Assembly: GCA_964500975.1 (NCBI GenBank)
Contig: CAZCQW010000004.1
Coordinates: 9,816-73,815, forward strand
Source: an uncultured Gammaproteobacteria bacterium
Lineage (GTDB): Bacteria > Patescibacteriota > Patescibacteriia > Patescibacteriales > UBA12465
Direction: 5' to 3'
DNA length: 64,000 nucleotides
Positions 1-60,276 of the stretch are shown here, in pieces. The notes under the pieces were generated by a model, which saw only the letters and a list, made by a program, of their open reading frames with translations, had not been told where the DNA came from and did not search any database. Position 1 is the stretch's first letter, and the number at the start of each line of letters is the position of its first letter. The position numbers were made by a program, and so were the translations under genes.

Positions 1-56
1 TTTTCTACAAGTTGCGCATAGGTTTTTTGTAGAACTGGAATTTTTGCTTTAGCCAT
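1..56 (-). CDS. 5' end of a minus-strand gene running off the window. The N-terminus reads MAKAKIPVLQKTYAQLVE; the product is not identified.
   Basis: Reverse complement of 1..56 begins with ATG at position 56 and stays open to the window edge. Two copies of the GC hairpin motif at 86..117 lie just upstream of it. Confidence 0.3.
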   Translation of the reverse strand, partial: MAKAKIPVLQKTYAQLVE

Positions 57-85
57 CTTATTTGTTTTGTTTATTCCGCCTTGGG

Positions 86-117
86 CGAGCAGATCCGCCT
101 TGGGTGGATGGGTTTAT
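86..117 (-). promoter_or_regulatory. Two tandem copies of the recurrent GC hairpin motif, CGCCCAAGGCGG followed by ATAAAC, upstream of the minus-strand start codon at 56.
   Basis: ccgccttgggcg at 86..97 and ccgccttgggtgg at 105..117. On the minus strand these read cgcccaaggcgg-aataaac-N14-ATG. Confidence 0.4.
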
Positions 118-271
118 AATTGTTAAATAACCTAAAAACAATATCACAATTAAGCACTATATGTCAATAGCTGAATTTTAGAGTAATTTTACCTTTTTTA
201 TAGTTTGTTTTTTTATCATTTTTATGGTATTTTAGATACTAGAATTATAAAAAATTATTTGAATATATTTT

Positions 272-2941: not shown

Positions 2942-4189
2942 ATGCTAGAAAACTTTCGCCAATTACTTAAGCTAGTTTTTATATCACTTTTGGGCAATAA
3001 AACCAGAAGTTTTTTGACGATGTTAGGGATTATAATTGGCGTTGGAGCAGTTGTTTTAATTATGTCGCTTGGCGCTGGTGCAAAGTCTTTGATCCTTGGT
3101 CAGTTATCCGGTGTGGGCGGAGATTTAATTGGCATTCTGCCGGGCCAATCAGATTCTAAAGGGCCGCCTGCCTCAGTATTCGGGGTTAAAGTTACTAGTT
3201 TAAAAATTGGCGATGCCGAAGCTTTTAAAGACCCTCAAAATGTAGCTCATATTACCTCGGTCGTTTCATATTATCAGACCAGCGCCACTACTTACTGGCG
3301 CGATCAAAGCTACGACGCGACTCTTCAAGGTGTGGTTGGTGATTATTCAGAACTTGAAGGTGGCGAAGTGTCTCTTGGTCGCTTTTTTACAAATGATGAA
3401 CTAAACTCTAGTTTAAATTTTGCTATCTTAGGGAGCACAGTGGCTAAAGAATTATTTGGTGATAATAATCCAGTTAATCAAAAAATTAAAATTAAAAATA
3501 AAACTGCAACTGTTATTGGTGTAATGAAAGAAAGGGGCCAGGTTGGTTTTCAAAGTTATGATAATTTAATAATTACACCTCTTCTTTTTGCCCAAAAAGA
3601 AATTGCGGGTGTTAATTATTTGAGCTCAGTTAGAATAAAAGTTGATAATTCTGAAAATATTGATGAGGCAATGGAAAATATTCGCCAAACTTTAAGAGAG
3701 CGTCACGATATTGATAATCCAACTGATGATGATTTTTCTGTTCGTAGTTTTAGGGACGCACTTGATTTAGTAAATACAATTACCGACTCAATTCGTTATT
3801 TTTTGGCTGCATTGGCTAGCTTATCTCTTCTGGTTGGGTGAATTGGAATTATGAATATTATGTTAGTTAGCGTTACTGAAAGAACGAGAGAAATTGGTTT
3901 AAGAAAATCGTTAGGTGCGACAAATCGCCAGGTTTTAAATCAGTTTCTATTTGAAGCGATTGTTCTTACATTGTTTGGTGGCTTAATTGGTCTACTAGCA
4001 GGAAGTTTACTTTCGTATTTAACAGCCATTATTGTTAGATCACTTGATTATCAGTGGGATTTTATTATTTCTTTATCATCGATTATTGTCGCTGTTAGTT
4101 TGTCGACTTTAATCGGAGTTGTTTTTGGTTATTATCCCGCTAAGCGAGCGAGCTGTTTAAGCCCAATTGAGGCTTTGCGTTATGAATAA
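2942..4189 (+). pseudogene. FtsX/MacB-type ABC permease interrupted by a single in-frame TGA at 3839..3841. It could alternatively be read through or recoded.
   Basis: ORFs 2942..3841 and 3851..4189 are in the same frame. The sequence LLVG*IGIMNIM...ERTREIGLRKSLGAT aligns with LLVGGVGIMNIM...ERTPEIGLRKALGAT in the intact paralog at 4193..5419. The TGA replaces the conserved Gly of the FtsX GG motif. Confidence 0.55.
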
Positions 4190-4192
4190 ATT

Positions 4193-5419
4193 ATGCGTGT
4201 TATTATTGCCTTTAAATTAGCTTTTAATTCGTTGCGCTTAAATCTTGTGAGAACAAGTTTAACGGTTTTAGGCGTGGTTATCGGAGTGGCGGCAATTATC
4301 GTTGTATTTTCAGCTGGTAGTATGCTTAGTAATTTAGTGTCGGGTGAAATTGAATCATACGGAACGAATGTTGTCCAAACTGAAACTAAGGCGCCAGGAA
4401 AAGCGGCCAATGGTTCAGTTGAGGTAACTTCTTTAAAAATTAGTGACATGGAAGCGATCAATAAGCTTAGGAATATTTCCATGAGCTATGCTGCTTCTTT
4501 AGCTCAGCAAAGAGTTAGCTATGAGTCACAAAGTAAAAAAGTTTTTATTTTTGGGACTAGCGCACCTTACGCAAAAATTGATACTAAAACGAAATTAGCG
4601 AGCGGTGAATTTTTTACTGAAGAAGATGATAAAAGTCAGGCCATGGTAGTTGTTTTAGGCTCCGCTCTAAAGGATGAATTATTTGGCAATCAAGATGCTA
4701 TTGGAAAATCCGTTAAACTTGGTACTAAAAAGTTTCAAGTAGTTGGTGTTTTAGAGGAGCAGGGTGGAGGGGCCTCTTTTCTTGATTTTGACAACATGGT
4801 TTATATCCCTATTAATACTTTGCACAAAAGAATTCTTGGTATTGATTATGCGATGTATTTTATGCACGAGGTTAAGGATATAAAGATTGCCGCTGATACA
4901 GCTGACGAAATTAAATCTCTTTTGCGTCAAAGACATGAAATTACTAATCCTGATAAAGATGATTTTAATGTTTCAACAATGGCAGAAATGATAGATACAT
5001 TAAGTACGGTAACTAATGCGGTTACTTATTTGTTGCTTGCCATTGTTTTAATTTCATTGTTAGTTGGTGGCGTCGGAATTATGAATATTATGTACGTTAC
5101 TGTGGTTGAAAGAACGCCGGAAATCGGTTTAAGAAAAGCGCTGGGGGCGACCAGGAAAGATGTTGTTTGGCAGTTTCTAATTGAATCTTTGTTAATTACA
5201 TTTTGGGGTTGGCTTCTTGGGGCTTTTATAGGTGTTTTAATTTCCTATTTATTGAACATAGCTGCCAGATATTTTGGCTTGGATTGGCAATTTAGTTTTC
5301 CTTGGCAGGGAATTGGTGCCTCGTTAATTTTTTCTTTGGTTTGCGGTCTTTTATTTGGTTATAGACCAGCTAAGCAAGCCGCCGCACTTGATCCAGTTGA
5401 AGCTTTAAGAATAGAATAG
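4193..5419 (+). CDS. FtsX/MacB-type ABC permease; the intact paralog.
   Basis: N-terminal TM helix, a periplasmic MacB_PCD-like domain, and a C-terminal FtsX 3-TM region carrying the LLVGGVGIMNIM motif. Confidence 0.8.
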   Translation: MRVIIAFKLAFNSLRLNLVRTSLTVLGVVIGVAAIIVVFSAGSMLSNLVSGEIESYGTNVVQTETKAPGKAANGSVEVTSLKISDMEAINKLRNISMSYAASLAQQRVSYESQSKKVFIFGTSAPYAKIDTKTKLASGEFFTEEDDKSQAMVVVLGSALKDELFGNQDAIGKSVKLGTKKFQVVGVLEEQGGGASFLDFDNMVYIPINTLHKRILGIDYAMYFMHEVKDIKIAADTADEIKSLLRQRHEITNPDKDDFNVSTMAEMIDTLSTVTNAVTYLLLAIVLISLLVGGVGIMNIMYVTVVERTPEIGLRKALGATRKDVVWQFLIESLLITFWGWLLGAFIGVLISYLLNIAARYFGLDWQFSFPWQGIGASLIFSLVCGLLFGYRPAKQAAALDPVEALRIE

Positions 5420-7986: not shown

Positions 7987-8028
7987 TTGAGCCAAAATAA
8001 TTAACACATTTATTGATAATAATTGAAC

Positions 8029-8041
8029 CCGCCCTAGGCGG
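8029..8041 (+). promoter_or_regulatory. GC hairpin motif ccgccCTAggcgg, 10 nt upstream of the nrdB ATG.
   Basis: A 5-bp GC stem with a 3-nt loop in an AT-rich context; the same motif occurs at 11057, 17997, 29426 and 53498-53547. Confidence 0.4.
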
Positions 8042-8051
8042 ACATATATAT

Positions 8052-9098
8052 ATGGGAAGAATAATAGGAAAAATGAATACTTTATCTAATGCTGAAGTAA
8101 TAAATAAGCGCCTGGTAATTAATGGTGAAGATGACGGTTTGATGCAGATAGCGCCCTTAAAGCATCAATTTGCTGATGAAATTTTTAAGACTATGCTTAA
8201 AAATAATTGGGTACCGCAAGAAGTTAATCTTCAGGAAGATATTGAGCAATGGCGTAAACCGGATATCTTAACCGAAAATGAACGTCGTGTTTATATGCGT
8301 AGTTTGTCTTTTGTTTCTAATTTAGACGGGATTCAAACAGGGAATTTAACGACTAACATTGTTAATCAGATAACTTCTCCGGAAATTATTTTGGCTATTG
8401 TTAGACAGGCTTATGAGGAAGCGCTTCATGTTCACAGCTATGCAACCATGATTGAGGCTTTAGGTTTTAATCCTGATGAAATTTACGGCATGTATAAGAG
8501 TGATAAAGAACTTTATACTAAGAACCAGTATGTCCTAACGGCAATTAATAAAATTGGTAATCCAAATTTCCAAACGGGAACTCTAGAAAATGACCAATTA
8601 TTTTTAGAAGCTTGTGTGGGCAATGTAATTTTAGAAGGAATATATTTTTATAGCGCCTTCTTAAATTTTTATATTCTTCGTCGTAATAATAAAATGCCTG
8701 GGAGCGCACAGATGATACAGTTTATTAATCGTGACGAAGATATGCACTTGCAACTCTTTATTAACGTCGTAAACACAATAAAAAAAGAACAGCCAGAGCT
8801 TTGGACTGAAGACTTTCAAGAAAGAATTATTAAAAATATTGAAGGTGCGGTTGACCATGAACTAGCCTGGGGAATGTCCTGTATTCAGGATGGAATTCTA
8901 GGATTAAACAAAGAAAATTTAACAGCTTATCTTCATTTCGTAGGTGACTTAAGATTAAAAGTTTTAGGGTTGCCGAAAAAATGGAATAGTGAAAATCCCT
9001 TTCCGTGGCTTGATGAATTTACTCAAGGAAATATGACCGAAAGCAACTTTTTTGAGTCTACGGTTAAAGAGTATTCAACCGGCAGTCTAGAGTGGTAA
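8052..9098 (+). CDS. nrdB: Ribonucleoside-diphosphate reductase beta subunit, a ferritin-like di-iron protein.
   Basis: Ferritin-like R2 motifs (EEALHVHSY, EGIYFYSAF, RDEDMHL). Start placed at the ATG at 8052 because the ORF-track start at 8013 would translate through the GC hairpin at 8029..8041. Confidence 0.85.
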   Translation: MGRIIGKMNTLSNAEVINKRLVINGEDDGLMQIAPLKHQFADEIFKTMLKNNWVPQEVNLQEDIEQWRKPDILTENERRVYMRSLSFVSNLDGIQTGNLTTNIVNQITSPEIILAIVRQAYEEALHVHSYATMIEALGFNPDEIYGMYKSDKELYTKNQYVLTAINKIGNPNFQTGTLENDQLFLEACVGNVILEGIYFYSAFLNFYILRRNNKMPGSAQMIQFINRDEDMHLQLFINVVNTIKKEQPELWTEDFQERIIKNIEGAVDHELAWGMSCIQDGILGLNKENLTAYLHFVGDLRLKVLGLPKKWNSENPFPWLDEFTQGNMTESNFFESTVKEYSTGSLEW

Positions 9099-9172: not shown

Positions 9173-9956
9173 ATGGAAACAAAATATTTAATTATTAATA
9201 CTGGCAGTACTTCAAAAAAATATTCTTTTTATAGTGATGAAGAAAAAATTTATACGGCTTAAAGATTCGCGAGAATTAGGATTGCGTCGTTTTGGGTATC
9301 ACGGCATTTCTGTTCAGTCAGTCGTTTCCAGGGCCGCTGAAACTTTGGGCACACTTCCTGAGAAAGTTATAGTTTGTCATTTAGGTGGTGGGGCGAGTAT
9401 TACGGCAGTTAAAAATGGTGAGAGCGTCGACACCTCGATGGGTTTCACGCCGCTTGAAGGTTTAGTGATGGCTACCCGAGTTGGCGATCTTGATCCGGGG
9501 GCGGTTTTGTATTTATCTGAGAAATTAAATAAAGATTATAAAGAGTTAGGGAGGTATTTTAATAATGAATGCGGCTTGCTTGGTTTATCAGGTTATAGCG
9601 ATGATCTTAGGGAGTTGCTCTTAAGTGAAGCATCTGGTCACGCTGATTCAACGCTTGCTTTAAAAATTTATGTTAACCGTATTAAACAATATATAGGGCG
9701 CATGGCAGCTGTTTTAGGTGGCGTGGACTTAATTATTCTAGCCGGAACAGTTGGCGAACGTTCGTTTATCATGCGAGAAAGAATATGTGAGAATATGGAA
9801 TTTTTGGGCGTGGTGTTAAATAAAGAATTAAATAGTAGATCAGAGGGTGTCGAGGTTGAATTAAATAAAACTGGCTCAAGAGTTAAAATTTTAGTTGTTA
9901 AGACTGACGAGATGGAGGAGATTGCAAAAGTAACGTTTAGCTTGGCAAAAAAGTAA
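9173..9956 (+). pseudogene. ackA: Acetate kinase remnant. The N-terminal 29 codons are followed by a TAA, and the C-terminal roughly 240 codons are in another frame. About 150 internal residues are missing.
   Basis: 9173..9262 encodes METKYLIINTGSTSKKYSFYSDEEKIYTA*, the AckA N-terminal ATP-binding motif. 9234..9956 encodes ...LRRFGYHGIS...CHLGGGASITAV...DTSMGFTPLEGLVMATRVGDLDP..., which matches AckA from about residue 190 onward. The sequence between these two parts is absent. Confidence 0.7.
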
Positions 9957-11040: not shown

Positions 11041-11056
11041 TAGTAAAAATTATAAT

Positions 11057-11069
11057 CCGCCCGAGGCGG
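11057..11069 (+). promoter_or_regulatory. GC hairpin motif ccgccCGAggcgg followed by agtaaac, 14 nt upstream of the eno ATG.
   Basis: Identical in architecture to the copies upstream of lemA and parB. Confidence 0.4.
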
Positions 11070-11083
11070 AGTAAACTAATTAT

Positions 11084-12373
11084 ATGAAGATAAAATCGAT
11101 AAAAGCCTTACAAATATTAGACTCAAGAGGAAATCCAACTCTAGCTGCGACGGTTATTTTAGAAAATGGTGTTAGCGGTTGGGCGGCAGTTCCAAGTGGC
11201 GCTTCAACTGGTAGTTACGAAGCGGTTGAACTTCGCGATGGCGATAAAAGTGTTTATGGCGGCGCTAGTGTTTTAAATGCCGTAAAGAATATAGAAGAAA
11301 AGATCGCTCCAGCTTTAATCGGCGAAGACGCAACTGATCAAGAAAAAATTGATGAAATAATGATCGCGCTAGACGGTACTGAAAATAAAGCAGTACTTGG
11401 CGCTAATGCAATTTTAGGGGTTTCTATGGCCGTGGCTCGTGCGGCCGCGACTTCATTAAATCAACCTTTATACCAATACTTATCTAAATTTAATCCTAAC
11501 TTCAACGGTACATATAAAATGCCTGTGCCAATGATGAATGTTTTAAATGGTGGTAAGCATGCTAACTGGGCAACCGATATTCAGGAATATATGATTTTAC
11601 CAGTTGGCGCTAAATCTATTTCTCAGGCTGTTCAAATGTGCGCGGAAATTTATCAAGCTTTGAAAAAAGTTTTGAAAGAGAAGGGATATAGTATTAGCGT
11701 TGGTGATGAAGGTGGGTTTGCGCCTGCAGTTTCATCTAACGAAGAAACTTTTGATTTATTAACTGAAGCGGTTAAAAAAGCGGGTTATGAATTAGGTAAA
11801 GATATTGTTTATGGTATTGATGCCGCTGCTACTGAATTTTTTTCTGAGAATGCTTATCACTTAAAGAAAGAAAATAAAGTAATGACAAGTGAAGAAATGA
11901 TTTCTTTCTATAAAGACTTGAGTGAACGTCATCCTATTAGATCATTTGAAGATATTTTAGCCGAAGATGATTGGACAGGTTTTAAAGCCTTTACCGATGC
12001 TTTCAACTGGGAGGTTCAAGTCGTTGGAGATGATCTATATGTTACTAACGTTAAGAGACTTGAAAGAGGAATTGCTGAAAAAATTACTAATTCTATCTTA
12101 ATTAAATTAAATCAAATTGGGTCATTAACTGAAACTATTAAAGCCGTTAACGAAGCTCAAGCGAGTGGCATGACGGCCGTTATCTCTCATCGTAGTGGTG
12201 AGACTGAAGATGCGTTTATTGCTGATTTAGTAGTTGCACTTGGTACTGGTCAAATTAAAACTGGCGCTCCCGCCCGTAGCGAAAGAACAGCTAAATATAA
12301 TCGTTTAATGGCGATTGAAGCTGAACTTGATGGTAAATCAGAATACGCAAGTTTCCCATTTTTGAAGAAATAG
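11084..12373 (+). CDS. eno: Enolase, phosphopyruvate hydratase.
   Basis: 429 aa. Motifs SIKALQILDSRGNPTL, SGASTGSYEAVELRDGD, IKLNQIGSLTET and SHRSGETED. Confidence 0.95.
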   Translation: MKIKSIKALQILDSRGNPTLAATVILENGVSGWAAVPSGASTGSYEAVELRDGDKSVYGGASVLNAVKNIEEKIAPALIGEDATDQEKIDEIMIALDGTENKAVLGANAILGVSMAVARAAATSLNQPLYQYLSKFNPNFNGTYKMPVPMMNVLNGGKHANWATDIQEYMILPVGAKSISQAVQMCAEIYQALKKVLKEKGYSISVGDEGGFAPAVSSNEETFDLLTEAVKKAGYELGKDIVYGIDAAATEFFSENAYHLKKENKVMTSEEMISFYKDLSERHPIRSFEDILAEDDWTGFKAFTDAFNWEVQVVGDDLYVTNVKRLERGIAEKITNSILIKLNQIGSLTETIKAVNEAQASGMTAVISHRSGETEDAFIADLVVALGTGQIKTGAPARSERTAKYNRLMAIEAELDGKSEYASFPFLKK

Positions 12374-12757: not shown

Positions 12758-12877
12758 GATTTTAAGTTGGTAAAAGAAGGACAGCTATCCTTCTTTTTTA
12801 TTTTCTCGTAGAATCGACAAATTTGTGCTATTATAGTTACAATAATAATTAATACCCTTTAAGTAGGGTAAAAAAAT

Positions 12878-13615
12878 ATGAACAAATCACAAATCTTTCT
12901 AGCTACTTTAGTTAGTCTAGCAGTGACTGCGATCGTTATTGTGGCCCTTGTTATGGCTAATAAAACTAATAATCTAGAACGTTTTTCTGTAAACGGATCC
13001 GGTACTGTTTACGCTAAAGCGGACATTGCTAATCTTGAAGTTGGTTTAAAAACTGGTGCGAAAAAAACAGCTGCCGAGGCAACTGTTGATAGTACTAATA
13101 AAATGAATAGCATTATTGCTGAGTTAAAAAAATTAGGGATTGAAGACAAGGATATTAAAACTTCAAACTATAATTTAAATCCAGTTTATAATTATACGCA
13201 AGATAAGGGTCAAGAATTAGTTGGTTATGAGGTTAACCAAAATGTAACTTTGAAAATTAGAGATTTAAGTAAAATTGGCGATGTAATTGCCAAGACAACT
13301 GAAAAGGGCGCTAATCAAGTCGGTAATGTTAGTTTTACAATTGACGATGAATTTGCTTTAAAAAACCAAGCTCGTGAATTAGCTATTAAAAAAGCTAAAG
13401 AAAAAGCTGAGTTAATTGCTAGTCAATCAGGTTTGAAATTAGGTGAACTAAAAGGTGTGTATGAAAACGCAGATCAAGGCATGCCAATTATGATGAGTTA
13501 TACTAATGCAAAAATGGAATCAGATGCTATGGGAGGCGGTATTGCTTCGCCAAGTATTCAATCAGGACAGAACGAAATTAAAGTCGATGTTACTTTAACC
13601 TACGAAGTAAAATAA
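12878..13615 (+). CDS. SIMPL-domain (DUF541) protein, a periplasmic or secreted 26-kDa-antigen-like protein.
   Basis: N-terminal TM anchor, and the core ...FSVNGSGTVYAKADIANLEVGL... A paralog lies at 21272..22021. Confidence 0.7.
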   Translation: MNKSQIFLATLVSLAVTAIVIVALVMANKTNNLERFSVNGSGTVYAKADIANLEVGLKTGAKKTAAEATVDSTNKMNSIIAELKKLGIEDKDIKTSNYNLNPVYNYTQDKGQELVGYEVNQNVTLKIRDLSKIGDVIAKTTEKGANQVGNVSFTIDDEFALKNQARELAIKKAKEKAELIASQSGLKLGELKGVYENADQGMPIMMSYTNAKMESDAMGGGIASPSIQSGQNEIKVDVTLTYEVK

Positions 13616-17852: not shown

Positions 17853-17985
17853 TTTTGTAAAATTTAATTAGTTAAAATACGGACTAACTTAGTCTGTTTT
17901 CTTGTTTTTTCTCAAAAAATGTGCTAAAATATTGGAGTATTAAATATAAAAATATAAATAAATTAAATTAAAATATCCATCCAGT

Positions 17986-18009
17986 GCGGACTAGTCCGCC
18001 CTAGGCGGA
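17986..18009 (+). promoter_or_regulatory. Two overlapping GC hairpins (gcggactagtccgc, then ccgccCTAggcgg) followed by agtaaac, 11 nt upstream of the lemA ATG.
   Basis: The same motif family as 8029, 11057 and 53498. Confidence 0.4.
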
Positions 18010-18020
18010 GTAAACAAATT

Positions 18021-18596
18021 ATGAATAAAAAAATTATTATTTGGTTATCAGTTTTAGGGGTTGTTGTTTTATTGATCGGCTGGTTTTGGAGCTCCTATAA
18101 TAAGCTCGTAACCGTTAGTGAACAAGTTGATGGCCAATGGGCTCAAGTAGAGGTTCAATATCAAAGACGTTTTGATTTAATACCTAATCTTGTTAATTCT
18201 GTTCAAGGTGCTATGGGTCAAGAACAAAAGATTTTTGGTGATTTAGCTGCTGCTCGTCAAAACTATAGCGGAGCTAATACTGCTAACGCTAAGGTTGAAG
18301 CCGCTTCTCAAGTTGAAGGCGCTTTAAGCCGTTTGCTTGTTATTATGGAGAATTATCCTCAACTGAAGTCTATGGACGCGGTTAATACTTTAATGGCTCA
18401 GCTTGAAGGAACAGAAAATAGAGTAAGTGTTGAACGTGGTCGTTTTAACGAAGAAGTTAAGGGGTACAATCTTTTAACAAAACGTTTTCCAATGAGTTTA
18501 ATGGCTTCAATGTTTAATTTCTCTGAAAAGTCATATTTTGAAGTTGCGCCAGTTGCCGCTGAAGCTCCAAAAGTTGATTTCCAAGTTACTAAATAA
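18021..18596 (+). CDS. lemA: LemA family protein.
   Basis: N-terminal TM helix and conserved LemA core, ...QVEVQYQRRFDLIPNLV... Confidence 0.85.
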   Translation: MNKKIIIWLSVLGVVVLLIGWFWSSYNKLVTVSEQVDGQWAQVEVQYQRRFDLIPNLVNSVQGAMGQEQKIFGDLAAARQNYSGANTANAKVEAASQVEGALSRLLVIMENYPQLKSMDAVNTLMAQLEGTENRVSVERGRFNEEVKGYNLLTKRFPMSLMASMFNFSEKSYFEVAPVAAEAPKVDFQVTK

Positions 18597-26382: not shown

Positions 26383-26664
26383 ATGTCAAAAATGACTAAA
26401 TCACAAATGATTGCTAATTTATCCGAAGCAACTGGTCTAAGCAAAAAAGACACAGCTGGATTCATGGAAAAGTTAGCAGACGTAGTTTACAAAGAAGTTA
26501 AAAAAGCTGGTGAATGTATCGTTCCTGGTTTTGGTAAATTAGTAAAGGTTAAGAGAAAGGCACGTGAAGGCAGAAATCCTGCAACAGGTGCAACTATCAA
26601 GATCCCAGCTAAGACGGTTGTAAAATTCCGTCTAGCCAAAGCTGTAAAAGATACAGTTCTATAG
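26383..26664 (+). CDS. hup: HU/IHF-family nucleoid-associated DNA-binding protein.
   Basis: 93 aa. Signature motifs GFGKLVKVKRKAREGRNPATG and IPAKTVVKFR. Confidence 0.9.
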   Translation: MSKMTKSQMIANLSEATGLSKKDTAGFMEKLADVVYKEVKKAGECIVPGFGKLVKVKRKAREGRNPATGATIKIPAKTVVKFRLAKAVKDTVL

Positions 26665-26702
26665 TATTTTGAATAGTTCGAAATTAGTTTCTCAAATATA
26701 AA

Positions 26703-26734
26703 GGCCATCCCGTCGGAATCCGGGATGGTTTTTT
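26703..26734 (+). terminator. Rho-independent terminator after hup.
   Basis: ccatcccg-tcggaat-cgggatgg hairpin followed by a T6 run. Confidence 0.8.
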
Positions 26735-26801
26735 ATTTACTTGACTCTAGGGTTATCTTTTGTTAAACTAAAGATAACCCTAAATATTAAATAATATACA
26801 T

Positions 26802-27026
26802 ATGGAAAACATAATTGCCTTGAAGGAGTTAAGACTTAATATGGAAAAATACGCCAATGAAGTTAAGAGTGGAAAGTCATTTATCGTTCTAAAACAGAGT
26901 AAGCCTATTTTTAAGTTAAGTCCGGTTGAAGAATCTGGTGAAGACGAGCGTTGGGAAGAGGTAGTAAACTTCACCAAGATTAAAAAAGGTGGAGTTGATA
27001 TTGATTCCTTATTGGCTTCTTTGTAA
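26802..27026 (+). CDS. Type II antitoxin of the Phd/YefM family.
   Basis: 74 aa. Motif ...KSFIVLKQSKPIFKLSPVEE..., and the stop lies 8 nt before the start of the toxin gene. Confidence 0.55.
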   Translation: MENIIALKELRLNMEKYANEVKSGKSFIVLKQSKPIFKLSPVEESGEDERWEEVVNFTKIKKGGVDIDSLLASL

Positions 27027-27034
27027 TTTTTGAT

Positions 27035-27280
27035 ATGGACAAAATTGCCAAGGCCTTACAAAGTCTATCAAGCAAAGAACGTGAACTTATTAAAACTATT
27101 CTTCTGAAAATAAAGAGTGGGTTTTTAGACGGACTTGATGTTAAAAAATTAAAAAACTGTGAAGATATATATAGGGCTAGAAAGGGAAAGTTGAGGATTA
27201 TTTTTAAGCGAACTGATGATAAAAATATTTATATCTTAGCGATTGAACGACGATCGGATAATACATACGGTAAATATTAA
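27035..27280 (+). CDS. Type II toxin of the RelE/ParE family.
   Basis: 81 aa. Motif DVKKLKNCEDIYRARKGKLRIIFKRTDDKNIYILAIERRSDNTY, matching the RelE/ParE pattern ..KLKG...YR.R.G.YRIIy..d....I.il.i.hR...Y. Confidence 0.6.
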   Translation: MDKIAKALQSLSSKERELIKTILLKIKSGFLDGLDVKKLKNCEDIYRARKGKLRIIFKRTDDKNIYILAIERRSDNTYGKY

Positions 27281-27292
27281 AACCCACAAAAA

Positions 27293-27320
27293 AACTGACC
27301 CCCAATAGATCAGTTTTTTT
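27293..27320. terminator. Bidirectional terminator between the toxin gene and the convergent HTH gene.
   Basis: actgac-ccccaataga-tcagt hairpin followed by a T7 run. Confidence 0.5.
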
Positions 27321-27364
27321 GATTAACACTTGCTTTCCACCTAGACCTTTTATTGTCTAAATTT

Positions 27365-27637
27365 CTATTTTAAATTTTTCCACTCACTAACATATTGACC
27401 CAAGCCAAATTCAGTAAATTTATTTTTTAACTTTGTATTTTTATTTAAAAAAATTAGAAGCGAGGAGAGTTCAATTTGGTATCTATTTTTTACGATCTTG
27501 TATTTAAGGTTTGGGTCTGACTTAATTGCTCTTCTAATCGTCTTACCTTGGACACCACCTAAATCGGCCGCTTCGGATACTGAAACCCAAATCGGATATT
27601 TAACTTCATTAACTTCAAAACTAAGGCGTTTTTCCAT
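27365..27637 (-). CDS. Excisionase-family helix-turn-helix DNA-binding protein.
   Basis: Motif WVSVSEAADLGGVQGKTIRRAIKSDPNLKYKIVKNRYQIELSSL, which fits the excisionase/MerR-like HTH pattern ..s..EaA.lLGVs..TirR.ik.g.l...kiG.r..i. Confidence 0.5.
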   Translation of the reverse strand: MEKRLSFEVNEVKYPIWVSVSEAADLGGVQGKTIRRAIKSDPNLKYKIVKNRYQIELSSLLIFLNKNTKLKNKFTEFGLGQYVSEWKNLK

Positions 27638-28028
27638 TTTTAAGTATTTAAGTCCAAGCTAGTTTAGACTAAAGTCGGACTTTATTTCTTTTATTTTTAG
27701 GTATTTGTTTTTTAAGTCCATAACAAACTAGACTTAAGTCTTATTATTTTAATCTTTCTAAAATAAATGTCAAGCCTAAAAGGAGCTTGATGTTTATGAA
27801 TGTTTGAGCTCTTGCCCGTAGTCCCTTAGATTTTATTAAGTTATTCTGCGTACTAAATTTAGATATATTTCTAGAGAAATTTAGAATGAATTTTAGTCAA
27901 ATTTTATCTCTTTACAGTATTCTTTTTATGTCCTATTTTGGCTTATCAACAGTTGATTTATACTTAATCATATGATAAGCTAAAACAACCTAATCTCAGA
28001 AAATCTAAGCATGACATTATAAAAATAA

Positions 28029-28631
28029 ATGCCTAATACTTTGGTCGAAAAATTTAAGAATAAACAATCCATAAGCAGACTGAAAAGTCATGACAAAGAC
28101 GCTTTTGTAAAAGCTTATGATGAGAGTGTAAATGATATTTATCGCTTTGTTTATTTTAAGGTAGGGAACAAGGAGGAGGCTAATGATATTACCTCCATGG
28201 TTTTTTTGAAGACCTGGAATCATATTCAAAATAATAGTCTTGAGGATAGTAAAACTTTAAGAGCTTTGCTCTATAAAATAGCCCGTACAACTATTATTGA
28301 CCACTACCGCGAGACGGGAAATAAAATTAGTGTTTCACTTGATGATGAAGAAAATAAAATTGATGTGGTTGATGAGGTTCAAGACCCTCAAGATAGGATT
28401 GATCAAGCTGCTAATTTAGAACTTATTAAAAGTAAATTACCTTTACTTAAGGAAGAATATCGTGAGGTGATTATCATGAAGTTTATCAATGATTTAACAC
28501 TTGAAGAAATCTCGGATATTACCGGAAAGAAGAAGGGAAATATTAGAGTATTACTCCATCGTGCCTTAGGTGCTCTTAAGGAGCTAGTCGGCGAAGAAAA
28601 GGCTGAAAATGAGCCAAGCGCTAAACTGTAA
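28029..28631 (+). CDS. ECF-type RNA polymerase sigma-70 family factor.
   Basis: Region 2 (VNDIYRFVYFKV...TSMVFLKTW) and region 4 (LTLEEISDITGKKKGNIRVLLHRAL). Confidence 0.85.
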   Translation: MPNTLVEKFKNKQSISRLKSHDKDAFVKAYDESVNDIYRFVYFKVGNKEEANDITSMVFLKTWNHIQNNSLEDSKTLRALLYKIARTTIIDHYRETGNKISVSLDDEENKIDVVDEVQDPQDRIDQAANLELIKSKLPLLKEEYREVIIMKFINDLTLEEISDITGKKKGNIRVLLHRALGALKELVGEEKAENEPSAKL

Positions 28632-28663: not shown

Positions 28664-29416
28664 ATGACCGATAAAGATTTAATCTCAAAATTAAATAGCC
28701 TAAAATCAATTAAACCCGATTCTACCTGGATGACCAGTAATCGGGATCTTTTGTTGTCCCAGATTTCTAATTCCGGAGCTCGCGATTTGAGTGCTTGGCA
28801 GCTTTTTGTTATTAACTTTAATAGCCTTGCTAAGGCAGTCGCTCAACCGGTTTATGCACTTGGCGCTTTTGTTTTAATTTTGATTTCTGGAAGTTTATTT
28901 AGTCATCAAGTTTTCAGTAGCGCTAAACCTAATGACTCTTTGTATATCGCGAGGATAATTTCTGAAAAGGCAAAATTAAATACAATGTTTAATTCTGACG
29001 AACGCAATAAGATGGCGGTTCAATTTGCAACCGAACATGCTCAAGATATTTCTAATGTTTTAGCTGACCCTAAATTTAATACTGAGGAGAATAAAGATCA
29101 GGTTGCAAAATTAAACGAAAGTTTTGATCAAGAAATTAAAACTGTAAAAAGTAAAATTAGCTATCTAATACCTAAAAGGGTTGTTAGTCCTGAACCAGAT
29201 AAATCTACTACTAGCGATGAGGTTATAATGGCGGGAAGTGAAAAGGCTACTAGCGGTGTTCAGGTTTTGGAAGTTGAAGTTGTTGCTGACGAAATTAAAA
29301 TTCCTGAAATAAAATCTGAAGAAACAATTATTAATGAAGCTAAAGTTTTGTTTGATAATAAAGACTACTCGAAGGCTTCTGATAAATTAAAGGAAGTTGA
29401 CGAGTTAATAAAATAG
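28664..29416 (+). CDS. Single-pass membrane protein, a candidate anti-sigma factor for the preceding ECF sigma.
   Basis: Immediately downstream of the sigma gene with a 33-nt gap. A cytoplasmic N-terminus, one TM helix (LGAFVLILISGSLF) and an extracytoplasmic C-terminus. No recognisable catalytic motif. Confidence 0.4.
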   Translation: MTDKDLISKLNSLKSIKPDSTWMTSNRDLLLSQISNSGARDLSAWQLFVINFNSLAKAVAQPVYALGAFVLILISGSLFSHQVFSSAKPNDSLYIARIISEKAKLNTMFNSDERNKMAVQFATEHAQDISNVLADPKFNTEENKDQVAKLNESFDQEIKTVKSKISYLIPKRVVSPEPDKSTTSDEVIMAGSEKATSGVQVLEVEVVADEIKIPEIKSEETIINEAKVLFDNKDYSKASDKLKEVDELIK

Positions 29417-29436
29417 TTAGTAAATCCGCTAGAGGC

Positions 29437-29484
29437 GGACTTCGCTCGCCCGAGTCGGACTTCGTCCAACCGAGTCGGACTTAG
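29437..29484 (+). repeat. About 2.4 copies of a 20-bp direct repeat, GGACTTCGYYCRMCCGAGTC, preceded by a GC-hairpin copy at 29426..29438.
   Basis: ggacttcgctcgcccgagtc, then ggacttcgtccaaccgagtc, then the partial ggacttag. Confidence 0.6.
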
Positions 29485-29943
29485 TAAGTGCACGTTTGTT
29501 AGTTTATCTCCCCTTACGCTCACTCCTGCTTGGAAGATTATTTCATCCTTCATGGACAAGTTATGGAGATATGCTAACAAATCCGCATTTATGTGGATTG
29601 GTAAACCTGGTAAAGGCCGAGTCTCCTGATGGAGATGGTTTATCCTTAAAAAATCTTATTATTTCAATTCAAAGCGCGAACGATTTATCAATTTTAGAAT
29701 AAAATGTAAATCGGTTAAGCTTTTCTCCAGCATGCGGACAACACGCGCAGCTGGCAGAACTTATTACAAGATCAGTCAGGCGGCGCCTTAAGTCTAAAAC
29801 AGGCTGGCGGAGCGGGATTCCGACTGATTTACTAATAAAGTAAAAAAAGATATCTCTAGTAGAGTAGAGAATTGAACAATTCTTCTATCTTTACTGTTTA
29901 AACTACTATTGTTTAGACGTGAAGAAAGAAATTAAAAATTATT

Positions 29944-44641: not shown

Positions 44642-44683
44642 CTTGATTTATTTATAATTTTCTTGTATTCTATAAATGTTATT

Positions 44684-45060
44684 AAGGTAAGCGGGCAATC
44701 GCTCTTTTTTAAAGTTTTTACTTTTTAGAGGAGAGGAAAGTCCGGACTTCGCCGCTTATTTATAAGCGAAATGATAGTGGGTAACGCCCACCGTCCGCTT
44801 CGCGCGGATAGGGACAGTGCCACAGAGACAATACTAATTTTGTAATTTATTACAAAATGAAAGGTGAAAAGAAATTAGGTGTTTTTCGAAGCTACTAATT
44901 TCGGCCTCCGGTGACGGAGATGCCGTGGTAAACCCTATCAGAAGCAAGAGCAAACATTTATGTTTACATAAATGACAAAGTAGCTCGCACGAGCTTATTA
45001 GCAATAATAAGCCAAGATAAATGATTGCTAGAACAGAATCCGGCTTATAGCTGCCTTAAT
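44684..45060 (+). ncRNA. rnpB: RNase P RNA, bacterial type A (M1 RNA).
   Basis: Universally conserved elements present: GAGGAAAGTCCGGACTTC (P4 5' strand), GGGTAACGCCCACC, ACAGTGCCACAGAGAC, AAACCC...AAGCAAG, and ACAGAATCCGGCTTATAG (P4 3' strand). A P1 stem pairs ttaaggtaagc with gcttat..gccttaa. Confidence 0.85.
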
Positions 45061-45086
45061 AATAAATGTATTTATTAAATTTATAT

Positions 45087-52556: not shown

Positions 52557-52560
52557 ATTG

Positions 52561-52644
52561 TACCGCGAGAGGGACTTGAACCCTCATGGTATCGCTACCA
52601 CACGAGTTTGAGTCGTGCATGTCTACCAGTTCCATCATCGCGGC
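52561..52644 (-). tRNA. tRNA-Leu with anticodon CAA; type II, with a long variable arm.
   Basis: The minus strand reads GCCGCGA-TG-ATGGAACTGGTAGACAT-G-CACGA-CTCAAAC-TCGTG-TGGTAGCGATACCAT-GAGGGTTCAAGTCCCTC-TCGCGGT-A. It has a 7-bp acceptor stem, an anticodon loop CU-CAA-AC and a T-loop TTCAAGT. CCA is not encoded. Confidence 0.85.
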
Positions 52645-52732: not shown

Positions 52733-53497
52733 ATGGGAAAAATCATTGCCATTGTTAATCAAAAAGGTGGAGTCGGAAAGACTACGACCTCTGTAAATTT
52801 ATCAGCCTACTTAGCCAATCTTGGCAAAGAGGTTCTTTTAGTTGATCTTGACCCGCAAGCGAATGCAACTTCAGGTTTAGGCCTTGATCACCGCAGTTTA
52901 GAAGCAGGTATTTATGAATCTTTAGTAAGTCATAAACCAGTTCACGAAATTATTAAAAGAACGCTTCAGAATGGTTTGAAAGTTGCTCCTGCGACTCTAG
53001 CTTTAGCTGGTGCTGGTGTTGAGCTTGTTAATCTTGAAAATAGAGAATTCCGCTTGGCAATGATTTTGGAAACAGTTAGAAATGATTTTGATTTTATAAT
53101 TATTGATGGCCCACCTTCTTTAGGCCTCCTAACTATTAATAGTTTAGTGGCGGCCGATGAAGTTTTGATTCCGATTCAAAGTGAGTATTATGCTCTTGAA
53201 GGCTTGAGTCAGCTCTTAGAAACTATTAGTTTGGTTCAGACTAATTTAAAGCCTGAACTAGAAGTGCTTGGTGCGGTTATTACTATGTTTGATAAACGCA
53301 ATAAATTGTCAGATGCAGTTATGGAAGAACTTTATAAATTTTTTCCAAATCGTATTTTTCGTTCAGTTATTCCGCGTAGCGTAAGACTTGCCGAAGCGCC
53401 GAGCTATGGTCGTACAATTTTACAATATGATCCAAAATCACGAGGTGCCAAGGCTTATGAAAGTTTAGCTCGTGAAATTTTAAGTATAGAAAAATAA
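52733..53497 (+). CDS. parA: Chromosome-partitioning ATPase ParA/Soj.
   Basis: Deviant Walker A KGGVGKTTT, plus DLDPQANAT and IIIDGPPSLG motifs. The ATG at 52733 (MGKIIAIVNQKGG) is preferred over the one at 52712. Confidence 0.9.
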   Translation: MGKIIAIVNQKGGVGKTTTSVNLSAYLANLGKEVLLVDLDPQANATSGLGLDHRSLEAGIYESLVSHKPVHEIIKRTLQNGLKVAPATLALAGAGVELVNLENREFRLAMILETVRNDFDFIIIDGPPSLGLLTINSLVAADEVLIPIQSEYYALEGLSQLLETISLVQTNLKPELEVLGAVITMFDKRNKLSDAVMEELYKFFPNRIFRSVIPRSVRLAEAPSYGRTILQYDPKSRGAKAYESLAREILSIEK

Positions 53498-53547
53498 CCC
53501 GCCCAAGGCGGGCGTGCCCGCCCAAGGCGGCTTGCCCGCCAAAGCGG
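53498..53547 (+). repeat. Three tandem copies of the GC hairpin motif (cccgccCAAggcggg, cccgccCAAggcgg, cccgccAAAgcgg), followed by tataaac, in the parA-parB spacer.
   Basis: Direct reading of the sequence. These lie 14 nt upstream of the ATG at 53562. Confidence 0.6.
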
Positions 53548-53612
53548 TATAAACAAAATATATGCCTCAAGGTTTAGGCCGTGGACTCGGCTAGCTTATC
53601 CCAAAAAAAACT

Positions 53613-54455
53613 ATGACTTACGGACAGAATCCGTTTAAGTCTGAAGTTTCTGAAGAAGAGACGGTTGTTTTTCATGATAGTGATAGAATTCTAAAAGTTA
53701 ATCCAGAAAGAATTGCTATTAATCCTCATCAGCCTCGAACCAGTTTTAATGACAATGCTTTAAATGATTTAGCAGAATCAATTCGTCAACACGGAATTAT
53801 TTCTCCATTAATTGTCACGCGTAAAGGTGATGACTTTGAATTAATCGCTGGCGAACGTCGTTTAAGGGCTTCTAAAATTGTTGGTCTAAAAGATGTGCCA
53901 GTTATTGTTCGTGAAGAACAAGATCAAAAAAAATTGGAAATTGCTTTAATTGAAAATCTACAGCGTGAAGATTTAAATCCTCTTGAAGTTGCTCGTTCAT
54001 ACCAAAGATTAATCGATGAATTTAATATTACCCAGGAAGAAGCAGCTAAAAAGGTTGGAAAGGCTCGCTCAAGCGTTGCTAATGCTTTACGTTTATTAAG
54101 CTTGCCTTTAGAAGTTCAAGAAGCGCTAGCGAGTGGAAAAATTACTGAAGCTCATGCTAAGTATTTATTAGGACTTGAAGGAGAGGCGAAGCAGATAAAC
54201 ATGCTTAAAAAAATTATTCGTCAGAACTTGACCGTAGCTGATACTGATAAGGAAATAAAGCGTCTTGGCGGAACTAAAGCTTCTAAAACTAAAGATTATT
54301 TTGATAGAGCTAAAGAGGAGGAATTAGCCGATTATTTAAGTACAAAAGTCGAGTTAAAACGTCAGGGCAGGGGCGGGAAACTAGTTATTGACTTTTATTC
54401 AGAAGAGGAGTTAAATGAAATAATACGTAAAATAAGTCAAGGGAAACATATTTAA
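53613..54455 (+). CDS. parB: Chromosome-partitioning protein ParB/Spo0J. The conserved N-terminal peptide is encoded upstream (53562..53591) but separated from it by an in-frame TAG.
   Basis: ParB box LIENLQREDLNP, the HTH region, and GERRLRA. Upstream, in the same frame, ATG at 53562 gives MPQGLGRGLG, then TAG at 53592..53594, then LIPKKT, then M at 53613. Confidence 0.85.
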   Translation: MTYGQNPFKSEVSEEETVVFHDSDRILKVNPERIAINPHQPRTSFNDNALNDLAESIRQHGIISPLIVTRKGDDFELIAGERRLRASKIVGLKDVPVIVREEQDQKKLEIALIENLQREDLNPLEVARSYQRLIDEFNITQEEAAKKVGKARSSVANALRLLSLPLEVQEALASGKITEAHAKYLLGLEGEAKQINMLKKIIRQNLTVADTDKEIKRLGGTKASKTKDYFDRAKEEELADYLSTKVELKRQGRGGKLVIDFYSEEELNEIIRKISQGKHI

Positions 54456-58599: not shown

Positions 58600-60276
58600 A
58601 TGCCCAAAGCGAAAAAAACTTCAGAAATAAAAAGCGAAAAGAAAATCGCACCTGCTCGAGGCAAGACAGGTAATTCTGAAAAAAAACCAAAAGCTAAAAC
58701 CAAATCTTTGGTTAAAAAAAAGACAGTCGTTTTAAAAAAAACAGCACCAACAGAAAGAGACGATAATTATAAGAAAAAGATTAAGTCTGTTATCGTTGAT
58801 GTTATAAAAGATGAAGATGATGTATTTCCAGATTTACCTTCAGTATATTCATTTCATGAAAATCGTGATTTAACAAGTAATAATGATGATAGCGATGAAG
58901 GTCAAGGTGAAGATGATGAAGATAATAATGAAAGTCATGATGATTATAAAACACAGAAAACCTCTGGTTTAGATTGTAGTGATGATGTTCGAGAAAATAT
59001 GTCAGCAGAGGCAAGTAATAGTGAAAGAAAAAAAGAAGAAGATATTGATAAACAAAAATTATTTTATTCTCAACTTGTTAGTGAAATAAAAACTAAAGAT
59101 GTATCTAATATTGAAAATAGTGCTCCAAGCGCTAAACACATAAGTCTGTATCGCGGTTTAGTTTGGAAATTTTTATCGTTTACTGTGGTTTTGCTTCTGG
59201 TTGTTTTGTATTTCTCTTTTGCGACTCTAACTATAGTTATTTCACCAAAAGGGGAAGAGATAAATGACAGCTTTTTGTTAAAGATAGAATCAGGAAAGAC
59301 AGATAATTCTGGCACACTTTCAGAAACTGATTATAGAGAGCTTATTCCTGGTGAAATTAAAGAAGTATTTTTAAACGACGAAAAAATAGTAACATCAAGT
59401 GGAGAAGAATTTATTGGCGACGAAATATATGGACAAGTCACTCTTGTTAATAATTCAAATAAGCCTCAAGTTTTAGTTGCAAAAACAAGATTGCTTAGTA
59501 CTGATAATAAACTATATCGTCTAAAAGAGGGTGTTACTATTCCGGCTGGAGGAAAAGTTGAAACGGAAATTTATTCTGATATTGCTAACGAAGATATGGC
59601 GATTAATGCTAGCACTTTTACTATTCCAGGTCTTTGGCTCGGTCTTCAAGATAAGATATTCGCTAAGAGTGAAAAGCCTTTTGTTTATAGACAAAAAGTT
59701 AAAAAATATATTAAGGCTAGTGATATTGAACAAGCAACTAGTGAGATGAATAATTCTTTAGTCTCTAAGCTTAAAGAAAAGGGCGGTAAAGTATCAAGTG
59801 ATCAAGTTTTTCTCCATGAAAATCTTGATAATTCGAGTGTCTTAAGTGATGGTAAGGCTGGTGAATCCAAAGAAAGCTTTACTGTAAGAGCGTCGAGTAG
59901 TTTAGTATCGGTTGTATTTTCTAAATCCGATGTTTCTAAATTAGCGGCTGCTAAATTGTCCCTACTTGTTCCAGATGATAAAGAACTGGTTGATTATAGC
60001 CAGGATAATATTAAATACTCCTTGGATCAGTATGATGTTGAGACTGGAGTAGCTACCGTCAAGGCTACTTTTACCGGAACAATGGTTTTGAAAAGCGACG
60101 CTAATATTCTTGATAAAAAACAATTAGTAAACTTAAGCCAACAACAGCTAGAAAATTATCTTAAAACATTTCCTGAAATCAGGAGTTACAAGCTTAAATT
60201 TAACCCTTCATTTATTACCCGAGCTCCGCGTTTACCTGAAAAAATACACGTTCAGGTTGCAGGTTTGGAAAAATAA
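58600..60276 (+). CDS. Hypothetical single-pass membrane protein of 558 aa, with a Lys-rich N-terminus and an acidic Asp/Glu-rich segment.
   Basis: A basic N-terminus (KKTSEIKSEKKIAPARGKTGNSEKKPKAKTK), an acidic stretch, one TM helix, and a large extracytoplasmic domain. Confidence 0.4.
   Translation: MPKAKKTSEIKSEKKIAPARGKTGNSEKKPKAKTKSLVKKKTVVLKKTAPTERDDNYKKKIKSVIVDVIKDEDDVFPDLPSVYSFHENRDLTSNNDDSDEGQGEDDEDNNESHDDYKTQKTSGLDCSDDVRENMSAEASNSERKKEEDIDKQKLFYSQLVSEIKTKDVSNIENSAPSAKHISLYRGLVWKFLSFTVVLLLVVLYFSFATLTIVISPKGEEINDSFLLKIESGKTDNSGTLSETDYRELIPGEIKEVFLNDEKIVTSSGEEFIGDEIYGQVTLVNNSNKPQVLVAKTRLLSTDNKLYRLKEGVTIPAGGKVETEIYSDIANEDMAINASTFTIPGLWLGLQDKIFAKSEKPFVYRQKVKKYIKASDIEQATSEMNNSLVSKLKEKGGKVSSDQVFLHENLDNSSVLSDGKAGESKESFTVRASSSLVSVVFSKSDVSKLAAAKLSLLVPDDKELVDYSQDNIKYSLDQYDVETGVATVKATFTGTMVLKSDANILDKKQLVNLSQQQLENYLKTFPEIRSYKLKFNPSFITRAPRLPEKIHVQVAGLEK

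Follow-up and report, generated by a model that had tools for sequence, protein, structure and literature searches.

The 64,000-nucleotide stretch of DNA analysed here (the window; part of contig CAZCQW010000004.1 from an uncultured bacterium placed by GTDB in the Patescibacteriota, UBA12465) carries a family of very short, G+C-rich hairpin repeats, one of which lies at 17995..18015, just upstream of lemA. The repeats are oriented with respect to the gene that follows, their position is linked to start codons, pairing within their stems has been kept, and copies are gained, lost and amplified quickly among relatives. We assign a probability of roughly 0.5 to the interpretation that they constitute a lineage-specific, dispersed and self-spreading RNA stem-loop cassette that acts on mRNA leaders at translation starts. 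The cassette is probably a new kind of RNA element tied to these starts and resembling repetitive extragenic palindromes (REPs).

The unit has the form T-CCGCC-CNA-GGCGG-A, with six base pairs and a 3-nt loop, and folds at roughly -9 to -10 kcal/mol. The exact pattern CCGCCNNNGGCGG (CCGCC-N3-GGCGG) occurs five times in the window, at 8029, 11057, 17996, 53499 and 53518, whereas 0.02 matches are expected in shuffled sequence and none of 100 shuffles reached five; when up to two mismatches were allowed, 18 matches were found against 3.3 expected. A covariance model was built from 26 copies and run over the whole window with filters off. Sense-strand matches were obtained solely at 68-108 (minus strand), 8026-8049, 11054-11077, 17993-18016, 29423-29486 and 53496-53555, and the rest of the window had no significant match to the model. 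These six loci, comprising about 12 units, bear out the recurrent GC-rich hairpin that had been noticed in the initial annotation. Rfam gave no match at any hairpin locus at the gathering threshold, nor when the whole window was searched to E = 5. Only about 10% of genes carry a GC hairpin.

The proximal unit is usually followed by (A/G)TAAAC, commonly GTAAAC, and stem and tail together make a cassette of 21-22 nt. Read in the direction of the downstream gene, every copy has a C-N-A loop and its tail on the 3′ side. The tail itself varies: the initial annotation had RTAAAC after each copy, and (A/G/T)TAAAC does follow the proximal unit at four of the six loci, but not at nrdB (ACATAT) or in the array at 29426. 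Units are single or arranged in direct tandems of two or three, with 4-7 nt between units and a period of 18-20 nt. Pairing is also possible between neighbouring units of a tandem, 3′ arm with following 5′ arm, and this cross-unit pairing explains a second palindrome at 17986-17999, which consists of the 3′ arm of the 17976-17990 unit, the spacer CTAG and the next 5′ arm. That palindrome had been located correctly, while the lemA copy it overlaps occupies 17996-18008 and not 17997..18009. Throughout, coordinates in the initial annotation were exact or out by 1-10 nt.

Measured from the last base of the stem, the distance to the ATG is 10 nt at nrdB, 12 at lemA, 14 at both eno and parB, and 19 at a gene on the minus strand. 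Positions 10-20 nt upstream of a same-strand start make up 3.0% of oriented intergenic positions, and five of the six loci fall there (P = 1.3e-7). The rule extends beyond the window. Joint Genome Institute (JGI) metagenomes were searched for exact matches to the 20-mer pattern TCCGCCCNAGGCGGAGTAAA, which includes no start codon, and 19 contigs were returned. Twelve of them are A+T-rich, and each of these has a real open reading frame (ORF) beginning 10-21 nt past the stem; the genes concerned are eno (two), adk (two, one contig having been recovered twice), frr, nusA, rplK, those for a thioredoxin, a LOG-family protein, a solute-binding protein and a SIMPL protein, and one unknown. A plain hairpin scan of the flanks of the JGI contigs added copies with the same spacing at nusG, at a second gene of contig L088 and at SIMPL in L101. 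In all, some 15 genes outside the window, in relatives and metagenomes, fit the 10-20-nt rule.

Every copy is in the sense orientation relative to its downstream gene. Since the minus-strand gene of the window and two divergent L088 genes conform, orientation tracks the gene and not the chromosome or replication strand. Four window loci lie 0-42 nt past a stop codon (those of parA, pyk, nrdA and the gene at 28664-29416), and in spacers of 120-215 nt the copies are still within 20 nt of the ATG.

The individual loci are as follows. On the minus strand, the proximal unit C-TCGCC-CAA-GGCGG-A (75..89, 27.3 bits) is followed directly by ATAAAC (73-68), and its stem ends 19 nt before an ATG at 56..54; the distal unit T-CCACC-CAA-GGCGG-A (94..108) is degenerate, with an A.C mismatch, and another ATAAAC (118-113) precedes the pair. 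This pair had been placed at 86..117, and the units are actually at 76-88 and 94-108. The remaining copies are on the plus strand. The nrdA-nrdB spacer has a single unit, C-CCGCC-CTA-GGCGG-A (8028..8042), 10 nt before the nrdB ATG at 8052, and the pyk-eno spacer has a full cassette, TCCGCC-CGA-GGCGGA-GTAAAC (11056..11076, 33.7 bits), whose stem ends 14 nt before the eno ATG at 11084. In the 5′ untranslated region (5′UTR) of the SIMPL gene, a variant hairpin, TACCCT-ttaagt-AGGGTA (12853..12870), lies 7 nt before the ATG at 12878 and occupies the site where relatives have a CCGCC-type unit. The lemA spacer contains a degenerate distal unit, TCCATC-CAG-TGCGGA (17976..17990), and the flagged full cassette, TCCGCC-CTA-GGCGGA-GTAAAC (17995..18015, 32.6 bits), with a stem ending 12 nt before the lemA ATG at 18021. 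What had been taken for a single copy at 29426..29438 is an array of three units repeated in tandem every 20 nt (29425..29479), 9 nt after the stop at 29416, which read in order TCCGCT-AGA-GGCGGA, TCGCC-CGA-GTCGGA and TCCAAC-CGA-GTCGGA. The three tandem copies annotated at parB, 53498..53547, are confirmed; their period is 18-19 nt, the third is a variant with 4 bp and a 4-nt loop, and the array with its TATAAAC (53498..53554) fits between the parA stop (53495-53497) and the parB ATG (53562), the stem ending 14 nt before that ATG. The parB frame (53562-54455) contains an in-frame TAG at codon 11 (53592-53594; MPQGLGRGLG*LIPKK), the result of a nonsense mutation or else of an error in sequencing; the codon is Ser (TCT or TCG) in three relatives, whose ParB has 297 aa, and public annotation of the window contig starts ParB at 53613 (280 aa).

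Pairing within the stem is strongly conserved. Across the 26 copies, 95.5% of cells are in standard pairs, a value matched by none of 500 shuffles and reduced to 31-54% when partner columns were slid. The outer pair covaries (U-A in 19 copies, C-G in three), and 21 copies close the loop with C-G, four with U-G and one with G-C. All seven wobbles have U in the 5′ arm, giving U.G in the sense RNA and an A.C mismatch in the antisense; seven C>T changes in the 5′ arm stand against no G>A in the 3′ arm. At orthologous sites diverged by ~20% in nucleotide sequence the hairpin is retained with both arms altered. The arms of the nrdB hairpin are CCGCC/GGCGG in the window, CCCAC/GTGGG in the related locus L081 and GCTTGC/GCGAGC in L001; those at SIMPL are CCGCT/GGCGG in L001 and CCCT/AGGG in the window; and those at lemA are CCGCC/GGCGG in the window and CCGCG/CGCGG in L001. 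The covariation analysis across copies and relatives that had been proposed as a check speaks for a maintained stem, with double compensatory changes at nrdB (CCGCC, then CCCAC, then TTGCG), SIMPL and lemA. Filled sites fold with -8 to -13 kcal/mol, and empty sites with -1 to -4.

Promoter-like sequences are found upstream of three copies. An extended -10 element of the SIMPL gene (TGcTATAAT or TGcTAAAAT) is kept in six genomes, 20-25 nt upstream of the hairpin position; the window has TGcTATTAT at 12826..12834, conserved in five relatives. At lemA, the extended -10 promoter TGCTAAAAT (17922..17930) is kept upstream of the hairpins among relatives, being conserved in L081 and L084. The minus-strand gene has TTGACA, 16 nt and TGnGATATT (140..167, minus strand) upstream of both units, a consensus match that would put both hairpins in a 5′UTR of ~75 nt. 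Because these promoters are consensus matches, we infer, and do not demonstrate, that the hairpin copies are transcribed as leader RNA. A leaderless promoter, with TAAACT or TAAACA as the -10 element, was also considered; the 6-nt distance to the ATG would suit it at eno and rplK, but the spacing elsewhere is 3-13 nt and TAAACA lacks the essential final T, and it was ruled out as a general explanation.

The family turns over rapidly. The parA-parB spacer has three units in the window, one in L107 and none in L105 and L106, which are nearer to the window than L107 by ParB identity and yet have no copy; the empty and single-copy sites differ by one clean 22-nt indel, CCCGCCCAAGGCGGGGTAAACA. The 29426 site has three units in the window, one each in L112 and L114, and none in L110. 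At lemA the site is filled in the window and L001 and empty in L081; at nrdB it is filled in the window and empty in L082; at SIMPL it is filled (by the variant) in the window and empty in L082 and L084. These three sites vary between filled and empty among genomes with 95-97% identical enolase, and the eno site is filled in all genomes whose enolase is at least 95% identical and empty at 90%. Empty sites often retain a TAAAC-like sequence.

Further afield, the covariance model gave a best E of 0.25 on 21 distant Patescibacteria loci (L002-L021, enolase at most 87% identical; L084, 90%). At the level of this 21-locus comparison set the family appears confined to a narrow clade, with patchy wider spread: L102 has a perfect consensus cassette at the same 5′UTR site although its SIMPL protein shares only 75% identity with those of the whole clade and L084. 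Two scans of viral contigs gave only chance matches, in contigs of 52-62% GC. The lack of exact matches in 80 enolase loci of GTDB genomes might have pointed to a recent insertion, a reading that was rejected when alignment revealed diverged hairpins in close relatives; as these stand at the same sites, the exact pattern is too strict for relatives.

Copies also occur within coding sequences and between direct repeats. In-frame sense copies of 21 nt were found in L105 (15081-15101, encoding SARGGVN in a Lys-rich N-terminal region) and on the minus strand of L087 (~206-226, where IRPRRSK is encoded ahead of a membrane helix). At the place of the L105 copy, the orthologous window gene (58600-60276) retains CCTGCTCGAGGCAAG, a decayed form. 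Direct repeats of at least 6 nt surround 16 of 25 loci, as opposed to 22% of control sites. The sole clear candidate for a target-site duplication is at 10715-10753 in L112, where a single hairpin insert, TCCGCCAGAGGCGGATTTCAC, lies between exact 9-nt direct repeats, AAGTGCGCG. At parB the insertion is a plain one with no duplicated target, so that the flanking repeats count as weak evidence of target-site duplication in general.

The array at 29425-29479 adjoins a conserved non-coding block (29486-29840, 355 nt) and not an annotated gene, ending 6-8 nt before it. The block is 87% identical to its counterpart in L112, where the flanking genes are 75% and 65% identical; its predicted fold beats all shuffles (z = -5.0), and one compensatory pair was seen. 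ARAGORN and Rfam found no Rfam, tRNA or transfer-messenger RNA (tmRNA) match in it, and a tmRNA reading was rejected, as the apparent tag ANDLSILE* is not an open frame in L112. A conserved GTG (ATG in L110) opens the block 8-9 nt past the stem, and after three further codons comes a stop (M[H/R]VC*); this is either a mini-ORF or just one strand of a long helix, so the start-proximal rule may apply to this locus too. Should the locus lie outside the rule, the hairpin would mark the 5′ edge of RNA units generally. The block may be an unknown small RNA, or else it may serve the 1123-aa gene at 29944 as a long regulatory leader.

How the cassette might act depends on the way translation starts in this organism. 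The G+C content of the window is 32-37%, GC skew is positive along its whole length, almost all genes are on the plus strand, and regions upstream of genes have ~20% G+C. Its enolase and ParB are nearest to proteins of uncultured Patescibacteria, several labelled Falkowbacteria, and the ~50 ORFs annotated with Pfam are ordinary housekeeping genes, with no transposase among them. The motifs GGAG, GAGG or AGGA occur at -20..-4 of only 4 of 51 window genes, two of the four being supplied by the hairpin element itself, which argues that the organism makes little or no use of Shine-Dalgarno (SD) pairing. The suggestion that the hairpin sits where an SD sequence would be is inaccurate: 10-20 nt separate the stem from the start, more than for an SD sequence. 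Low SD use agrees with a survey of Parcubacteria, in which an anti-SD motif was detected in only 48%, while the 16S helix h26, which contacts the SD helix, is still conserved, its role being unexplained (PMC9297842).

On the interpretation that we favour, the cassette would be transcribed in mRNA leaders and intercistronic spacers, with the sense stem ending 10-15 nt (rarely ~20) before the start codon. The stable hairpin would most likely mark and insulate the unstructured A/U-rich initiation region of mRNAs that have no SD sequence: it would prevent pairing between that region and upstream RNA and set a 5′ boundary for the 30S subunit, and it may also, or instead, halt 5′-to-3′ decay just before the ribosome-binding region. 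Either insulation or a block to decay would raise the expression of the downstream gene or uncouple it. The family would gain copies when an entire cassette inserts or a unit is duplicated in tandem, and would lose them again within short times. Because the distance to the ATG is capped even in spacers of 120-215 nt, we favour a link to initiation, whether by insulation of the landing site, a 5′ stop for the 30S subunit or docking on its platform, over a generic stabilising role; the minimum of 10 nt would agree with how much mRNA the 30S exit channel contains. Among the roles raised in the initial annotation, that of a translation-modulating 5′UTR hairpin is the one that conserved upstream promoters, sense-only placement, a set distance to the start, and compensatory and wobble pairing speak for, as far as sequence analysis goes.

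Several observations weigh against this interpretation. Hairpins begin 18-45 nt past the inferred transcription starts, so protection of a 5′ end would need prior trimming or processing, and transcription itself is read from promoter consensus. An element present at ~10% of genes is not a general initiation signal. The near-identical copies in diverged genomes and the in-frame coding copies argue that the cassette is also actively copied or bound by a sequence-specific factor; near-identity at 25% protein divergence suits copying or sequence-specific recognition better than a purely structural role. Distal units of dimers have A.C mismatches in two cases, and these would form pairs on the antisense strand alone. 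The covariation comes from few genomes, and some of the 'orthologous' hairpins could be independent insertions at one spot. Finally, the 29425-29479 locus precedes a non-coding block rather than an annotated gene. A barrier to decay by a 5′ exonuclease would account for all loci, the non-coding one included, given trimming of 18-45 nt from the leader.

The strongest alternative, which we think unlikely without dismissing it, is a selfish miniature mobile element of the REP, MITE (miniature inverted-repeat transposable element) or GC-cluster type, without host function, whose placement reflects choice of target, for example next to A-rich RTAAAC-like sequence, together with purging of harmful insertions. 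Patchy presence in close relatives, the clean 22-nt parB indel, consensus-identical copies in divergent genomes, the two in-frame coding copies, the TAAAC-like sequence often left at empty sites and the flanking repeats at 16 of 25 loci, including the 9-nt repeat in L112, would all be expected of such an element. So would two copies with a CTACG 3′ flank, which corresponds to the REP tag GTAG on the antisense strand. However, neither Pfam annotation of the 64-kb window nor the genes called in ~130 kb of relatives showed a transposase or REP-associated tyrosine (Y1) transposase (RAYT), and 21 nt is, to our knowledge, smaller than any element known to be mobilised. Orthologous hairpins persist with compensatory changes across ~20% nucleotide divergence, copies keep within 20 nt of the ATG even in 120-215-nt spacers, and the flanking repeats are weak in A/T-rich DNA and absent as a duplication at parB.

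Two further proposals would place the element on the ribosome itself. In the first, which is improbable, the 6-bp helix, supplied 10-15 nt upstream of the start codon, docks at the site of the SD/anti-SD helix on the 30S platform near h26 and serves as a self-propagating, cis-encoded substitute for the SD helix that boosts or positions initiation on selected genes. The second, to which we give slightly less credence, makes the element the ribosome-binding signal, with GGAG in the 3′ arm (GGCGGAG) as a masked SD sequence or the 6-bp helix in the SD pocket of the 30S subunit. In size the stem matches an SD helix, its distance to the ATG falls in a narrow window, the eno and lemA copies do contain GGAG, and h26 is conserved in Parcubacteria without the anti-SD motif (PMC9297842). 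GGAG is not conserved, however (GGCGGAA, GGCGGAC, GCGGTA and CGCGGAC also occur), and only a minority of genes have the element. A canonical SD site, complementary to CCUCC and 5-10 nt before the start, was rejected on the same grounds: only some copies have GGAG, and the gap from it to the ATG is 10-13 nt, beyond functional SD spacing.

Marginally less probable again is a DNA operator, a 6-3-6 inverted repeat (TCCGCC-N3-GGCGGA) between promoter and start codon that is bound by a dimeric transcription factor governing a housekeeping regulon, with tandems 19-20 bp apart bound cooperatively on one helix face. This would explain a perfect inverted repeat of operator size, the conservation of sequence beyond pairing across divergent genomes, a tandem period of nearly two helical turns (18-20 nt) and sites downstream of promoters, as for a roadblock repressor. 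The binding site for a global regulator that the initial annotation had envisaged is nevertheless disfavoured. The half-sites evolve asymmetrically (seven C>T in the 5′ arm, no G>A in the 3′ arm), orthologues alter both arms together and so keep pairing rather than sequence, and the CNA loop, the 3′ tail and the flanks are strand-specific, always sense to the gene. In addition, copies are found in operons directly behind a stop codon and within coding sequences.

Least credible among the functional readings is a non-canonical terminator, an attenuator or a 3′ stabiliser of the upstream gene, with proximity to starts as a by-product of short spacers. Four window loci do follow a stop by 0-42 nt, and G+C-rich stems block 3′ exonucleases in other bacteria, as REPs do in malE-malF. 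On the sense strand, however, no copy has a T-run (U-tract) 3′ of the CCGCC hairpin, and operon ends have canonical terminators (A-tract, stem and T-run) that are separate from the hairpins, after nrdB, the eno operon, the MacB genes and elsewhere, which led us to reject an intrinsic terminator. For lemA, SIMPL and the minus-strand gene, the copies come after the gene's own promoter, past a separate terminator or in a divergent spacer, and in the 120-215-nt spacers copies adjoin the start and not the stop. A DNA-uptake sequence can be dismissed, with only about one locus per 10 kb and strictly intergenic copies in a single orientation.

The start-proximal, sense-only RNA cassette that we favour can be set against known repeats, among which such placement in a genome of the candidate phyla radiation (CPR) that lacks SD sequences is unusual. 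Like REPs and the mosaic elements built from them (BIMEs), it is a short G+C-rich palindrome dispersed in intergenic DNA and strain-variable, is predicted to form RNA hairpins and is found in some genes; a further likeness is that REPs and BIMEs are thought to affect mRNA stability. REPs are defined as imperfect palindromes of 20-40 bp with an unpaired GTAG or CGTC tag at one end and an association with a RAYT gene; they lie mostly downstream of coding regions, and units are often paired in opposite orientation (PMC3733652). Here, the palindrome measures 13-15 nt and the cassette 21-22 nt; multi-unit loci are all direct tandems and never inverted pairs; copies stand upstream of starts, including 5′UTRs of divergent genes; and no RAYT gene was seen in the 64-kb window or the called genes of related loci. 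Most copies have no tag, the flank being mostly RTAAAC-like; at two sites (L001 19935-19954, at lemA, and L097 7-26, at nusG) CTACG replaces GTAAAC, so that the antisense strand has GTAG directly before the stem, as in the classical REP tag. The REP-like nature proposed in the initial annotation thus holds for behaviour (presence/absence and copy-number polymorphism, the 22-nt indel, coding copies) but not for the defining features of tag, inverted dimers and downstream position.

Other resemblances are likewise partial. MIRUs of mycobacteria, reportedly described in 1997 by Supply et al., are intercistronic tandem repeats of 40-100 bp. The cassette shares with them direct tandems in operon spacers, one orientation to transcription and strain-variable copy number (0, 1 or 3 at parA-parB); MIRUs differ in being longer, not hairpins, and provided with small ORFs that overlap flanking stop and start codons. 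Stem-loops that act as 5′ stabilisers or processing barriers include the ompA 5′ hairpin, the B. subtilis aprE and ermC leaders and the stem-loop after the cggR-gapA cleavage site. These, too, are stable hairpins just upstream of the ribosome-binding region that protect or decouple the downstream message, but they are single, gene-specific and at or near the 5′ end, unlike near-identical repeats that start 18-45 nt past the inferred transcription start. Yeast mitochondria have comparable short G+C-rich palindromes, the GC clusters, in A+T-rich spacers, and we know of no mobilising enzyme for these or for the repetitive hairpin elements (RHEs) of sponge mitochondria. Like the cassette, RHEs are very short G+C-rich hairpins that invade A+T-rich spacers and are patchy in close lineages (PMC2800124). 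Both kinds are organellar, however, and no set start-codon distance or strict sense orientation has been reported for them.

Two array systems were also compared. The stem with ATAAAC presumably resembles the 3′ part of type I-E CRISPR repeats, but a CRISPR array (repeats of 23-50 nt, unique spacers about as long, cas genes usually close by) was rejected, as units are 4-7 nt apart with at most three per locus, and no cas domains were found in the window. TIGR (tandem interspersed guide RNA) arrays are long and have 36-nt units, two spacers of 8-12 nt, box C/D motifs and an adjacent Tas gene with a Nop domain (PMC12045711). They were rejected in view of the 18-20-nt period, one to three units, no variable spacers and no Nop-domain protein in the window.

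Some further features were recorded. A MacB-like permease is split by an in-frame TGA (3839-3841) into ORFs in the same frame, 2942-3841 (MacB_PCD) and 3851-4189 (FtsX), and an intact paralogue follows at 4193-5419. Acetate kinase (9234-9956), 135 nt from nrdB, is truncated to profile positions 167-391; L082 and L084 have an ackA of 395-396 aa at this site, and L082 and L083 also have a 111-aa ORF after ackA. Between the genes for HU and an extracytoplasmic function (ECF) sigma factor, L110, L112 and L114 have a phage-type Bro-N domain gene, where the window (26664-28029) has only small ORFs. The sole RNA genes recognised in the window are those for class A RNase P RNA (44683-45062, 195 bits) and tRNA-Leu(CAA) (52560-52644) on the minus strand. 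Unrelated contigs of 47-49% GC returned by the pattern search (L091 9989-10138; L103 10989-11028) have a double-hairpin unit of their own, CCGCCAACGGCGG-gttttgatcggaac-CCAGCGTTGCTGG, recurring ~110 nt apart.

How start sites are chosen and tuned independently of SD sequences is an open question in Bacteroidota and part of the CPR. If the helix-docking proposal were true, expression could be retuned through gain, loss and tandem amplification of the cassette; if the repeat were merely selfish, it would be among the smallest insertion units described, and its mobilisation would then be the interesting part. The family widens the range of REP-like repeats to one that is far smaller, strictly sense and start-proximal, in a symbiont-type genome of roughly 1 Mb with scarce selfish DNA, and its copy-number polymorphism is a possible strain marker for the clade in metagenomes. 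A repeated hairpin at a set distance from starts offers a testable handle on SD-less initiation in uncultured organisms.

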